Shown here: in pieces, positions 49,507-55,276 of the stretch | How the letters are laid out: each line of letters begins with the position of its first letter | How positions within the stretch are numbered: position 1 is the first letter of the stretch | Source: an uncultured Actinomycetes bacterium | Lineage (GTDB): Bacteria > Actinomycetota > UBA4738 > JBBDTT01 | DNA length: 64,000 bases | Direction of reading: 5' to 3' | Assembly: GCA_963742735.1 (NCBI GenBank) | Contig: CAVUMN010000004.1 | Location: 1,088,001-1,152,000 of the forward strand | The notes under the pieces: model-generated | Seen by the model: the letters and a program-made list of their open reading frames with translations, nothing else | The model's database searches: none | Told to the model about the DNA's origin: nothing | Program-made: the position numbers and the translations under genes

Positions 49507-52500
49507 GTGCCCGTGGAGTACTTGGTCTTCCTCGCGGCGGCGGCGTATGCGTTCGGCCTCTGGTGGATCGGGCGGCGCATCGGATGGGCTCGCCGGAAGG
49601 TCTGGATCGGCATCGCCGTCCTGCTCCTGGTTATGGGCCTCACCCTGCTCGGTCAGCTCAACGGCCTCCTGGCCGACATGCATCCCGAGACGAAGGCTGG
49701 GCAAAACCTCTCCGCGTTGACGGGCTTCAAGCCCGACGTGGCCCGGCGTGCCATCGCGGACTGGAACGAATGGCACACGCCGGTTGCGAACCTCTTCGCT
49801 TCGCCCGCGACCGTCGTCCGTTGGTACTCGGTCATCGACACCTTCCTGTTCGTGGTCGCGTACCTGCTTGGCGGAGCGGCCCTGCTCGCGCTGGGCCAGC
49901 GCGCGGTGGCCGCGCCGGGGGAGCGTCCTCCCTTCCGCCATAGCCCCGTGATGCTGAGCCGGTGGGGCGTCTGGGCACTCCGGGCCCTCCTGGTCGCCGG
50001 CTTCGCCGACGTCTGCGAGAACATCATGCTCGTCCGGGTGGTCGCGACTCAGAACCCCGCCGGCTCGATGCTCACGCTGCTCTCGGTCTTCTGGGTGGTG
50101 AAGTGGGGATTCATCGTCGTCGCACTGTTTCTGGCCGAGCCGATGCTGATTGGAGGACTTCGGCTCGTCCTGGGCCGAAGCCAGCTGTTCCGCACGACCG
50201 TAAACCGGGTGCGGGCCCAGATCGTCGTGTTGATCGTGTACGCGCTGATCCTCAACGTATCGGACCAGGTTCCAGACCTGATCCGGCTCTGGAACACCTG
50301 GCGGGCGCTGTGGACCATCGCCGGCTGTCTCCTGTTGGCACTGGTGAGCTGGGACTGGACACGGAGGATCCTCTCGGCTCGCCAGGACCTCGACACGATC
50401 AAGGACCGGCGAAACGCGATGTGGATGATCGGCCTGGTCGTGACGGCTTTCGGTAGCGGCATGTGGAAGGTCGGCCCCCGTGGCTTGGTAATCCCGGGCG
50501 TCTTCATACTGTTCCTGGCGGCGTTCCACTCCGTAGGGAAGGGCATGCTCGATCCGGGTCCGCCACCCCCCGCCCGATACGGGACTTCGGCGCTGCCTCG
50601 CGTGCTCGCGGCCGCCTTTCCGATCGTGCTCTCGCTCGCCGCGGTCAAGGCCTACTTCGCGCACACGATCTACGACTTGAACGACGGCGGGTCGGGGTGG
50701 GCCATCGGGACCCTCGTCGGGTGGGGTCTAGGCGGCCCGCTCCTGGCAGCCGGGTTGTACCTGGGGCTGGGGCGACTCAACACGAACCCTTCGAACCCTC
50801 GCCGACTCGAAGGGCGGGCCCGGAGAGGCATCCCCAGCCTGATCGTGATCGGGGGCCTCCTCGGCGTCCTCGTCTGGGTGCGGGTGATCCAGAACCCTTG
50901 GGACGTCTCGCAGCAGCTGGGCGCGCTCACCGTGATCACGCTGTTCTTGATCCTGCTGGCGATCGCCCTGGGTCGGGTGGTCTACGTTTCCGAGCGCGTT
51001 CGCCCGCCGATGGCGTTTCGGCTGCTGAATCTCAAGAAGATCCCCGTTGTGACGATGCTTGCAGCCTGGTTCCTCATCGCCGGCAGCCTCTCGTGGGTGG
51101 ATCACGAAGAGTTCCACGACGCCCGGACCATCGACCTCAGTCTTGGCTCGCTGCCTCCGAAGCTCGGGGACGTGTGGGCGCGGTGGCGGTCCCAGAATCG
51201 GCTCGCGTTGGTGGCCCCGCCTGGCAACGACGGCACCAAGACCGCCATCCCGCTGGTGTTCGTGGCCTCCGGTGGCGGCGGCATCAAGGCTGCGGTGTGG
51301 ACGTCCTACACGCTCGACTGTTTGCTGTCCGAGCAGCCGATCAATCCCGAGCGATGCCCTCGTGACTCCGGCGAGGCGGGCCGAGGCCGCTCGATGATCG
51401 CGGGCAGCGCGATCTCCGGAGGCAGCCTCGGGCTCGTCGCGTACACCACCCAACGGTCGACCCGGACCTTCACGGGCGACTGGGTGCAGCGGGCGCTTGG
51501 ACACGACTTCGTATCCCCGTCTCTCGCCTGGCAGACGCTCGTGGAGTTCCCTCGCGCGTTCCTGGAGTTTCCGGGGCACATGGATCGTGCGGAGGTCATC
51601 GAGCGCGCGTGGGAGGCCCCCTGGTTCGGGTATGAGACCTCGGCGACCAAGGCCTGGTTCGGGAAGCATCCGGAGTCGCAGGGTCCGCTGGCTCGGGGCA
51701 TGCTCGATCGCTGGTACAAGGATCCGGCCATGCCACTACTCCTGCTCAACGGCGCCAGCGTGCAGAACGGATGCCGATTCCTGGTCTCGCCGCTCGACGG
51801 CAACGACCGCTTCAACGGAGGGAACTGCCTCGGGATTCGTCAGATCCCGGGGGTGGCCCCCGACGGCGAGACGCAGGGCCGCGACGGCGTCCAGCTCGAC
51901 AGCGTCTTTCCCGCCACCCGCAGCGTGATCGACTTCCTGTGCATGAACACGGGCTCCCCGGACGACCTGCGCCTGTCCACAGCGGCGGGCGTCTCGGCGC
52001 GGTTCCCGGCCGTGTCTCCGTCGGCGCGGTTTCGGTCGTGCCCCGGGTCGGTCGACCGCGCGGTCAATGTCGTGGATGGCGGGGTCCTGGAGGGCACCGG
52101 CGCGTCCACGGTCACCGAGCTATACCTCGCGCTCCGGTCCCGAATCGAGGCGTGGAACGCACAGCCCAACGGGAGCTGCATCGTCCCGTACTTGATCCAG
52201 ATCGAGAGCGGCTACGGCTCGCAGGTCGACGTGCCGACTCTCGACATCGCCGAGATCCCCGCGCCGCTGAAGGCGTCCCGCGGGGGCGCGGACGCGCGCG
52301 GTGCCAGCGCCCGCAACCTGGCGGCGACGTTGTTCAACGAGACCTTCCCGGGAACGACGGTCCAGGATCGGTACGCACTGCTTTACCCCCGAGCCCATCC
52401 GGACATCCAAGCGCCCCTGGGCTGGTCGCTCTCCCCGCAGTCCATCGTGGAGCTCCGGAGGCAACTGGTCGCGAATCAAAAGGAGATCAACGAGGTCGCC

Positions 52501-52569
52501 CGTTGGTTCGCGGGCGGAAGCGGCTGCGAAGAGTCCAAAACGTCGCCCGATCAGCCGGTTCTGGACTGA
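49507..52569 (+). CDS. Large multi-pass membrane protein with C-terminal patatin/cPLA2-like domain
   Basis: Many TM segments, then ASGGGGIKAA (oxyanion loop), AISGGSLG (nucleophile Ser), SARFP, VDGG. Confidence 0.85.
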   Translation: MPVEYLVFLAAAAYAFGLWWIGRRIGWARRKVWIGIAVLLLVMGLTLLGQLNGLLADMHPETKAGQNLSALTGFKPDVARRAIADWNEWHTPVANLFASPATVVRWYSVIDTFLFVVAYLLGGAALLALGQRAVAAPGERPPFRHSPVMLSRWGVWALRALLVAGFADVCENIMLVRVVATQNPAGSMLTLLSVFWVVKWGFIVVALFLAEPMLIGGLRLVLGRSQLFRTTVNRVRAQIVVLIVYALILNVSDQVPDLIRLWNTWRALWTIAGCLLLALVSWDWTRRILSARQDLDTIKDRRNAMWMIGLVVTAFGSGMWKVGPRGLVIPGVFILFLAAFHSVGKGMLDPGPPPPARYGTSALPRVLAAAFPIVLSLAAVKAYFAHTIYDLNDGGSGWAIGTLVGWGLGGPLLAAGLYLGLGRLNTNPSNPRRLEGRARRGIPSLIVIGGLLGVLVWVRVIQNPWDVSQQLGALTVITLFLILLAIALGRVVYVSERVRPPMAFRLLNLKKIPVVTMLAAWFLIAGSLSWVDHEEFHDARTIDLSLGSLPPKLGDVWARWRSQNRLALVAPPGNDGTKTAIPLVFVASGGGGIKAAVWTSYTLDCLLSEQPINPERCPRDSGEAGRGRSMIAGSAISGGSLGLVAYTTQRSTRTFTGDWVQRALGHDFVSPSLAWQTLVEFPRAFLEFPGHMDRAEVIERAWEAPWFGYETSATKAWFGKHPESQGPLARGMLDRWYKDPAMPLLLLNGASVQNGCRFLVSPLDGNDRFNGGNCLGIRQIPGVAPDGETQGRDGVQLDSVFPATRSVIDFLCMNTGSPDDLRLSTAAGVSARFPAVSPSARFRSCPGSVDRAVNVVDGGVLEGTGASTVTELYLALRSRIEAWNAQPNGSCIVPYLIQIESGYGSQVDVPTLDIAEIPAPLKASRGGADARGASARNLAATLFNETFPGTTVQDRYALLYPRAHPDIQAPLGWSLSPQSIVELRRQLVANQKEINEVARWFAGGSGCEESKTSPDQPVLD

Positions 52570-53344: not shown

Positions 53345-53821
53345 TCAGCGGCCGACGGCGCGTGCGCGCTGGTAGTGGCGGGCCACGCGGGCTCGGTTCC
53401 CGCACGTGGCCGAGCACCACACCCGGTCGGCCCGAGTCGCGACGTAGTAGTTGCCGCAGCCCGGGGCCCGGCACACGGCCAGCTTGTCGCGCGCCTCGGT
53501 CCCCAGGAGCTCAACGCCGGCGCGGGCGATCGCGCTCAGGGCGACGGTGAGGGGGGACAGGCGCCGCGTCTCCACGACGAGCGCGGGAGCATCGGGATCC
53601 CCCACATCGAGCTGGGGGAACTCCGGCACGGCCGCGGCCGCCGCGTTCAGGTCGTGCACGTCCTGGGAGCCGAACGGGGCGCCGGCGAGCGCATTCGCGA
53701 ACAGGCGCCTGAGCACGGCCCGCAGCTCGGCGAGCCCCTCCAGCGTGTCCCGATCGCGTGGAAGGCCGAAACCATCCGTGAGCGAGTCCTCGCCGTTCGC
53801 CAGATCGAGGGCCGGGTTCAT
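53345..53821 (-). CDS. ABATE/CGNR zinc-finger protein
   Basis: ALDLAN; CRAPGC...WCSATCGNRARVARH. Confidence 0.92.
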   Translation of the reverse strand: MNPALDLANGEDSLTDGFGLPRDRDTLEGLAELRAVLRRLFANALAGAPFGSQDVHDLNAAAAAVPEFPQLDVGDPDAPALVVETRRLSPLTVALSAIARAGVELLGTEARDKLAVCRAPGCGNYYVATRADRVWCSATCGNRARVARHYQRARAVGR

Positions 53822-53827
53822 CGTTGC

Positions 53828-53855
53828 TAACGCTAATCATCTACAGAAGCCGTTA
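53828..53855. promoter_or_regulatory. Candidate operator TAACG-N18-CGTTA in AT-rich divergent promoter
   Basis: Short inverted repeat immediately upstream of the CGNR gene. Confidence 0.4.
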
Positions 53856-53925
53856 CAAGGGCATGCTAATGAGAAATATGTTTGAGTTCCGTTACAACCG
53901 AGGGGCGTGGCACAATTTGCCTGCC

Positions 53926-54390
53926 ATGCTCGCCGATGGAACGCCCGCCCCCGACTTCCAGCTCCCCGACCAGGACGGCAACCCCGTCGCGCTCGAGGAC
54001 TTCCGCGGCAAGTGGCTCGTCTTCTGGTGGTTCCCCAAAGCCGCGACCGCCGGCTGAACGGTCGAGGGTACGGGGTTCCGTGATCGAGCCCCACAGTTCG
54101 CAGAGCTGGACGTCGCGATCGCCGGCGCCTCCTTCGACACGCCCGAGGAGAACAAGGCCTTCGCCACGAGCCACGGGTTCCCGTTCCAGCTGCTCTCCGA
54201 CGCCGACCGGGTCGCCGGCGGCGCGTACGAGACGCTCCGCGCGCCGGAGGAGACGATGCCCGAGTGGGCGAAGCGGCGGACCTACCTCATCGACCCCGAA
54301 GGCGTCATCCGCAAGTCCTACCGCGTGGCCGATACGACCACTCACGCCGACGACGTGCTCGAGGACCTGAAAGCGCTGATGGCTGGCTAG
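53926..54390 (+). CDS. bcp: Bcp/PrxQ peroxiredoxin, probable selenoprotein (TGA at 54055-54057 read as Sec44)
   Basis: MLADGTPAPDFQLPDQDG...WWFPKAATAG*TVEG...GASFD...FPFQLLSD...RRTYLIDPEG. The TGA replaces the peroxidatic Cys of PKAxTPGCT and the frame stays open after it. Confidence 0.88.
54059..54086 (+). promoter_or_regulatory. Bacterial SECIS-like hairpin
   Basis: Upper stem ACGG/CCGT with GGTT loop starting 16 nt after the UGA; lower stem CGGTC/GATCG. Confidence 0.65.
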
Positions 54391-54400
54391 CATTGAGGCC

Positions 54401-55276
54401 GTGAGCATCCTGGTGGCCACCGCCGACGGCCTGTTCCTGGTGAACGGCCACGTCGAGCGGGCCGGGCTCGAGGGCCGCGACGTGACCGCGCTGTCCGCGG
54501 ACGGCACGTGGGCCCTGGCAGAGGGCCGCTCGATCCTTCGCGCCAACGACGGCGAGTGGGCGATGGTCGCCTCCCTCCACGGCGACCGCGTGGGCCGATG
54601 CCTGCTCCCCGTCGGCGACCAGCCGCTCGTGGGGACCTCCGAGGCCGGCCTGTTCCGCGGCTCCGATCCGGTGACCTCGTTCGAGACCGTCGAGGGCCGC
54701 GATGCCTGGTACACGCCGTGGGGCGGCCCGCCCGACACCCGCTCGCTCTCCGCCGGGACCGACGGCGCCGTCTACGCGAACGTCCACGTGGGCGGGATCC
54801 CTCGCTCCGATGACGGCGGCGCTACCTGGATCCCGACCATCGACGTCGACGCCGACGTCCACCAGGTCCTGGCGCACCCGACCGAGGCCCGCCACGTCCT
54901 CGCCGCCACCGCGTACGGCCTGGCCGAGAGCCACGACGGGGGACGGACCTGGCTCACCCGCGCCGACGGCCTGCACGGCCGGTACCTGCGCGCGGTCGCG
55001 GTGGCGGGGGAGTGGGTCATGGTCACCGCGTCGGAGGGCCACCGCGGCCGCCACGCCGCCATCTACCGAACGCCGTACGCCGGCGGGGCGTTCGAGCGCG
55101 TTCCCCAGGTCCCCGACTTCACCGACAACGTCGACACCTTCTGGCTGGCCGCCGACGGCGACCGGGCCGCGTTCGCCGGTCCCGACGGATCCCTGTGGAG
55201 CTCCGAAGACGCCGGTGCTTCATGGCACCCCCTCGCCGGAGGCCTGGTCGCCGTCCGCGCGCTCGCCCTGGTCTGA
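54401..55276 (+). CDS. BNR/Asp-box beta-propeller protein
   Basis: RSDDGGATW, ESHDGGRTW, SSEDAGASW; WYTPWGGPP. Confidence 0.8.
   Translation: MSILVATADGLFLVNGHVERAGLEGRDVTALSADGTWALAEGRSILRANDGEWAMVASLHGDRVGRCLLPVGDQPLVGTSEAGLFRGSDPVTSFETVEGRDAWYTPWGGPPDTRSLSAGTDGAVYANVHVGGIPRSDDGGATWIPTIDVDADVHQVLAHPTEARHVLAATAYGLAESHDGGRTWLTRADGLHGRYLRAVAVAGEWVMVTASEGHRGRHAAIYRTPYAGGAFERVPQVPDFTDNVDTFWLAADGDRAAFAGPDGSLWSSEDAGASWHPLAGGLVAVRALALV

Follow-up and report, generated by a model that had tools for sequence, protein, structure and literature searches.

We identified, in the 64,000-nucleotide stretch of DNA analysed here (the window), a gene that is best read as encoding a peroxiredoxin with selenocysteine (Sec), specified by UGA, as its predicted catalytic residue, and we put the probability of this reading at roughly 0.93. 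Judged by its sequence and that of its relatives, the gene is a true selenoprotein gene, and it belongs to a well-supported clade within a selenoprotein family that has been known for about 20 years. The features in the window on which this reading depends are the following.

53926 to 54390, forward strand: predicted coding sequence of a Sec-containing Bcp/PrxQ-type peroxiredoxin, 154 residues with an ATG start and a TAG stop, based on translation with TGA as Sec, Pfam, and orthologue alignments.

54055 to 54057, forward strand: UGA read as Sec (U44), in the column of the Bcp cysteine, with TGA in 29 of 29 orthologue rows and TGC or TGT in distant homologues.

54072 to 54092, forward strand: SECIS-type hairpin, with arms at 54072-54078 (GGGGUUC) and 54086-54092 (GAGCCCC) and the loop CGUGAUC at 54079-54085.

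54064 to 54099, forward strand: possible lower stem of 3 bp, tentative, pairing 54064-54066 with 54097-54099 and proposed by RNAalifold only.

The original prediction had claimed that the open reading frame stops at TGA 54055-54057, that some 110 further codons of a Bcp/PrxQ fold follow it, that this TGA lies at the peroxidatic cysteine, and that the protein has no other cysteine, and each of these points is borne out. Translation table 11 ends the peroxiredoxin frame at this codon and leaves a stub of 43 residues before it. Reading through the TGA gives a protein that runs from ATG 53926 to TAG 54388-54390, in which U44 is followed by 110 codons. This protein matches the Pfam family AhpC-TSA (PF00578) with 110 bits against a cut-off of 26 (E 9.6e-32), over residues 5-130 and profile positions 2-123 of 124, and the Redoxin family with 62.6 bits. 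The start at ATG 53926 is supported, since orthologue alignments and full-length database relatives share that methionine. The closest solved proteins are Bcp-type peroxiredoxins (5enu with E 9.4e-23; 5iph, 5iiz, and 3gkk near 1e-20), which align over residues 7-151. In 5enu and 5iph, U44 is aligned to the cysteine of the PGCT motif, and the active-site motif of the window protein reads P37-K-A-A-T41-A-G-U44 (PxxxTxxU). A candidate catalytic arginine, R117, whose role is inferred from the family, is retained in 25 of 25 orthologue rows and aligns with the arginine of ERSTFLID in the same two structures. The 154-residue translation contains no cysteine.

On the NCBIfam models, the protein scores 91.8 bits on PrxQ against an equivalog cut-off of 260 and 90.3 on Bcp against 140 (NF053650, NF006960), below both cut-offs, and 44.6 bits on peroxi_PrxU (NF040737) against 270, which is likewise below. 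Because the PrxQ and Bcp models score best and yet remain under their cut-offs, we regard the window protein as a member of a divergent PrxQ-like subfamily rather than as an equivalog. NCBIfam holds no model for a Cys-free Sec-PrxQ clade.

It had also been claimed that a standard pipeline would split this gene, and the database record agrees. Among the best 120 matches in a set of 5.8 billion proteins, 104 are N-terminally truncated (about 90-117 residues), three carry W at residue 44, and 13 are forms with Cys at that residue. In 81 of the 104 truncated proteins, the first codon is the one that aligns with residue 46. The names, where given, are "peroxiredoxin Q/BCP" or "thioredoxin-dependent peroxiredoxin". 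Hundreds of public relatives are stored in this way, either as truncated fragments from which the catalytic residue is missing or with that residue replaced by Trp, and tallies of antioxidant capacity and selenium use in soil Actinomycetota are biased because of it.

The three proteins stored with Trp at residue 44 (P0002, P0003, and P0005, all from short metagenome contigs) could be taken to mean that UGA does not stand for Sec here but for Trp, as in code 4, or for Cys or Gly through near-cognate read-through. We consider this very improbable, and the three entries suggest instead that a gene caller translated TGA as Trp. Trp at the peroxidatic position would abolish peroxiredoxin catalysis. 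UGA is moreover the commonest stop codon of the source genome, ending 654 of 1163 long high-GC3 open reading frames, and of the first 20 orthologues, 13 use TGA as their own stop codon. Because it is the commonest stop, and because prfB with its usual programmed frameshift site is also encoded, UGA has not been reassigned across the genome. The genome also encodes a dedicated apparatus for Sec, which corroborates the claim that this actinobacterium uses selenocysteine: selA, selB, selD, and a tRNA-Sec are all present in an assembly of 3.08 Mb in 5 contigs that is 88.9% complete with 71% GC. The window itself spans C4:1088001-1152000 of that assembly, and the positions of these genes on its contigs (C3 and C4 below) are as follows.

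C4:787843-787933: tRNA-Sec (Rfam RF01852, 73.6 bits; ARAGORN tRNA-SeC with anticodon tca).

C4:531688-532998: selA (502 bits, cut-off 268).

C4:525782-527587: selB (286 bits, cut-off 242, model positions 2-580 of 581).

C4:1524556-1525476, forward strand: selD (391 bits), with one in-frame TGA at the usual GAG-U-ACK site.

The in-frame TGA of selD implies that selenophosphate synthetase would itself be a selenoprotein in this genome. The Sec trait extends across the order, since selA matches with E <= 1e-30 were found in 57 of 61 genomes of the same order, 55 of them above the family cut-off. The gene for release factor 2, prfB (C4:1462228-1463254, forward strand), carries its programmed +1 site near the start, and its frame shifts a second time in mid-gene at model position 216/217, near C4:1462842-1462844, where a one-base assembly indel is probably responsible. 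A Sec formate dehydrogenase was not found with one query in this 88.9% complete genome; the molybdopterin-family matches at C4:1185289, C4:775003, C4:117530, and C4:116808 are without an in-frame stop. Two further AhpC/TSA-family matches contain one in-frame TGA each, at C3:366346-366807 (forward strand) in the context HWG-U-TFC (UxxC type) and at C4:297478-297816 (reverse strand) in the context WASW-U-GC. Both have a hairpin about 17-30 nt downstream of the TGA, and both are probably additional thioredoxin-fold selenoproteins.

The distribution and conservation of the UGA were assessed by searching the read-through protein against the 61 genomes of the same order, the source genome included. 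This returned 29 orthologous matches in 28 of the 61 genomes. The source genome's copy is 99% identical to the query and the others 53-72%, and each match contains exactly one TGA, which in 29 of 29 rows stands at residue 44. One extra orthologue fragment begins past residue 44. The full-length matches at or below 41% identity have no in-frame stop, and some weaker partial matches (E about 1e-10 or worse) have a TGA of their own. By family, the gene occurs in 2 of 2 genomes of f1, 6 of 9 of f6, 10 of 15 of f7, and 10 of 14 of f8, and in none of the 21 genomes of f2-f5. A class-level draw of 151 genomes, which contained families of one order only, held the gene in 22 genomes, each with one TGA, and in 0 of 116 genomes of f5. 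Unpublished genomes contribute six of the 29 rows, namely L025 (G031), L031 (G027), L032 (G006), L033 (G052), L034 (G049), and L039 (G030), and the remaining 23 rows, from published genomes, agree in having TGA at residue 44. The 61-genome tallies of the gene and of selA also cover the unpublished G014 and G039, and the 151-genome draw covers the six unpublished genomes named above.

Beyond these orthologues, the column pairs Cys with TGA in the way that the proposed Sec reading had implied, with TGA in every orthologue row and Cys at residue 44 in distant homologues and database relatives. Searches with tblastn over loci L041-L092 listed 52 alignments that span residue 44, of which 37 have TGC or TGT and 15 have TGA. 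The latter comprise 10 orthologue rows, a clade of four loci (L059, L060, L065, and L066), and Bacillus sp. SG-1 (L089). The contig search for related loci gave a single close orthologue (L051, on the same contig as L027) together with Cys homologues and the clade of four. That clade is a second group of Sec-PrxQ, from uncultured bacteria and a Neomarinimicrobiota MAG, separate in the tree described below and with Cys at +5 (PG-U-TKEAC-GFRD). The Bacillus locus is an AhpC-like gene with TGA at the aligned peroxidatic column.

Immediately past the UGA lies the SECIS-type hairpin, whose helix begins 14 nt and whose loop begins 21 nt downstream, with a helix of 7 bp and a loop of 7 nt. On the 29-row alignment, 202 of 203 helix cells are paired (99.5%), against a maximum of 67.5% in slid controls. 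Five of the seven pairs are invariant across the 29 rows, and the changes consist of one compensatory G-C to A-U exchange (L026), one mismatch (L024), and nine one-sided compatible changes at the U-G pair, so that covariation support for this helix is thin. The loop consensus among orthologues is CGUGAYC, which places a G in a small apical loop. Both the RNAalifold consensus and the single-sequence minimum free energy structure contain the helix. Taken alone, the sequence past the UGA has no folding advantage over shuffles (z 0.23 over 61 nt and -0.98 over 36 nt), and support for a SECIS is for this reason comparative rather than thermodynamic. An Rfam scan of 53800-54500, run to E 10, found no SECIS family, its three matches all being at chance level. 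Conservation of the helix is partly at the protein level, because it overlaps the conserved peptide GFRDRAP, and the possible lower stem is inseparable from protein constraint because it falls within conserved Glu and Phe codons.

A hairpin had in fact been foreseen at this place, though in another register. The proposed ACGG-GGTT-CCGT (54070-54081) is present as sequence, and a conserved hairpin does exist, but it is that of 54072-54092. The inner two G-C pairs of the proposed structure persist among orthologues, its outer pairs are found in 15 of 29 and 2 of 29 rows, and with 64.7% of cells paired over the 29 rows it does not rise above the slid controls and was rejected.

Codon usage across the hairpin speaks to constraint on the RNA. 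In the full-length rows (n=25) the synonymous sites there are frozen, with ACG for T45 in 23 of 23, GGG for G50 in 24 of 24, CGT for R52 in 25 of 25, and CGA for R54 in 25 of 25, whereas comparably conserved residues elsewhere in the gene use 2 to 6 codons (six for R105, three for R117, and four for G5). Outside the hairpin, synonymous sites vary freely among orthologues. The five codons originally described as atypical are indeed all rare in the confident open reading frames of the genome (GGT 7.1%, CGT 7.0%, GAT 12.2%, CGA 8.8%, and CCA 4.5%), but only CGT and CGA are frozen, and GGT, GAT, and CCA vary among orthologues. We regard the frozen rare CGT and CGA codons, each making up less than 9% of Arg codons, as the strongest evidence that selection would be acting on the RNA as well as on the protein.

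These patterns also bear on whether the gene might be a pseudogene, that is, an ordinary Cys-peroxiredoxin in which TGC or TGT has mutated to a nonsense TGA. The 43-residue stub that table 11 yields ahead of the TGA is what such a gene would leave, and the genome holds a Cys paralogue of the window peroxiredoxin (C4:143643-144056, 40% identity). Against this, the TGA is retained in all 29 rows down to 53% identity, the 110 downstream codons are open and conserved with synonymous sites that are free outside the hairpin, and the Sec machinery is encoded in full; we consider a pseudogene extremely improbable.

Assemblies from other samples carry the same codon. The shares of sampled words in soil-metagenome runs were small (0.04-0.08, for contigs only), and contigs from four soil runs, each of a different study and one made from an RNA library, cover 53944-54240 at about 94-96% identity. 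In three of the four, 54055-54057 is flanked by at least 31 letters to the left and to the right; in the fourth, which also covers it, one flank is 15 letters long. All four are identical to the window at 54055-54057 and throughout 54072-54092, and they differ from it at flanking synonymous and replacement sites. They represent assemblies of close relatives rather than reads from the source sample, and the contig from the RNA library is no measure of expression. The assembly has at least one probable indel (the mid-gene break in prfB), which might lead one to suspect that a single-base mistake in sequencing or assembly turned a Cys codon into TGA. The likelihood of this is vanishingly small, given that 27 other genomes and the contigs of the four soil runs have TGA at this codon, and that the hairpin and frozen codons would be senseless for a Cys codon.

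The surroundings of the gene in the window lend no operon argument, because neighbours are not shared across orthologue loci. A conserved operon was considered and rejected: the upstream ABATE/zf-CGNR gene is common only to a genome of the same genus, and the downstream gene occurs in 0 of the 19 other orthologue loci searched (L022-L040). The ABATE/zf-CGNR regulator gene (53345-53821, reverse strand) is divergent from the peroxiredoxin gene. The intergenic stretch between them (53822-53925) is AT-rich for this genome and contains two direct copies of CCGTTACAA, at 53850-53858 and 53889-53897, 39 nt apart, and this pair may represent a possible operator. Further upstream, an open reading frame at 49507-52569 (forward strand) encodes 1020 residues with a hydrophobic N-terminal half and has no Pfam match at E <= 0.001.

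The 13 Cys-forms among the best database matches allow the Sec clade to be placed among its relatives. Nine of them are full-length at 51-64% identity (P0004 and P0006-P0013), and in five of these nine closest forms the Cys at residue 44 is the only cysteine. We built a quick maximum-likelihood tree of 76 rows, with SH-aLRT support only, the Sec residue masked in Sec rows, and midpoint rooting. In this tree, 28 Sec rows form a single group (support 90) that has three Cys rows nested inside it (P0004; P0006 with P0007). The Cys-forms P0008-P0013 lie just outside the group, and the marine-type Sec clade (the four loci noted above) is placed elsewhere. The well-supported branches cannot be reconciled with fewer than two changes between Cys and Sec, and under midpoint rooting these may have run in either direction.

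We propose that the window protein is very probably a thiol-peroxidase of the Bcp/PrxQ branch in which Sec replaces the peroxidatic Cys, decoded by means of SelB and the hairpin and working through a 1-Cys-type cycle with Sec. From what is established for bacterial Sec decoding, SelB-GTP carrying Sec-tRNA(Sec) would bind the hairpin at 54072-54092 and deliver Sec to the UGA at 54055-54057, such that termination by release factor 2 would be avoided. T41 and R117 would position U44, whose selenolate would then attack the peroxide and pass to a selenenic acid, and an external thiol reductant, perhaps thioredoxin or a similar protein, would reduce the oxidised enzyme. Recycling by an external thiol, as in a 1-Cys-type cycle, is indicated because the protein is free of cysteine. 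It has none at the resolving position +5, and 24 of 25 full-length orthologue rows are likewise Cys-free. The window protein also has Ala where chain u83487 (5iox) has a Cys that is replaced by Ser in the variant u83498 (5iph), and which we take to be the resolving Cys.

A broader evolutionary scenario can be put forward only tentatively, at distinctly less than even odds. The clade might be a Cys-free '1-Sec' PrxQ, with Sec as its sole redox-active residue, that descended from a single-Cys PrxQ lineage and that four families within an order of soil Actinomycetota have retained. The Sec trait would then owe its maintenance to SelD and thioredoxin-fold peroxidases and not to FdhA, and occasional reversions to Cys (P0004; P0006 and P0007) would mark a local loss of advantage.

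Knowledge of the mechanism of Sec decoding, and of the families that use Sec, is unchanged by this finding. Its importance lies mainly in annotation, with the modest mechanistic point of a Sec enzyme without any cysteine. The Cys-free Sec-PrxQ clade, with its sharply conserved SECIS, is a possible model in which to study how SelB recognises its SECIS in Gram-positives of high GC, and it could let Sec and Cys be compared inside one orthologous group.

The literature on selenocysteine with PrxQ or Bcp yielded nothing specific to Sec-PrxQ in Actinomycetota among the matches listed, the supplementary lists of the surveys lying outside its scope, and the literature on selenocysteine with Acidimicrobiia yielded, among others, a 2026 Actinomarina preprint with no mention of peroxiredoxin. 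Sec-peroxiredoxins as such are well represented in surveys. A 2026 review names Prx (PF00578, TxxU; motif PxxxTxxU) among the selenoprotein families (PMC13188914). In the Sargasso Sea, 43 Prx selenoproteins were counted under COG1225, as the second most abundant family there, in a study that also gave the criterion for a bacterial SECIS, a stem-loop closely following the UGA whose small apical loop contains a G (PMC1088965). A 2006 survey reported 12 Prx selenoproteins and pointed to a wealth of selenoprotein families in the phylum Actinobacteria (PMC1794560), and a 2016 survey reported 91 in 78 organisms (PMC5029168).

As far as these surveys describe them, the known Sec-Prx of COG1225/PF00578 share with the window protein the fold family, the PxxxTxxU motif, a peroxidatic UGA, and a downstream SECIS whose apical loop includes a G. 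The window clade differs in coming from a soil Actinomycetota order and in being almost uniformly Cys-free, although the supplementary lists of the surveys may already include members. The window clade is also without the resolving Cys that stands at +5 in the marine Sec clade and in most Cys homologues. Cys-type Bcp/PrxQ proteins (5enu; 5iph, 5iiz, and 3gkk) have the motifs PK..T.GCT.EG..FR and R.T(F/Y)LID in common with the window protein, which differs from them in its predicted Sec, rather than Cys, at the peroxidatic site. PrxU of Eubacterium acidaminophilum was reportedly shown experimentally to be a Sec-peroxiredoxin by Sohling et al. in 2001, a study that the 2026 review cites (PMC13188914). 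Both PrxU and, by prediction, the window protein have a UGA-decoded Sec at the peroxidatic position, but they belong to different branches of the peroxiredoxins, the window protein scoring higher on the PrxQ and Bcp models.
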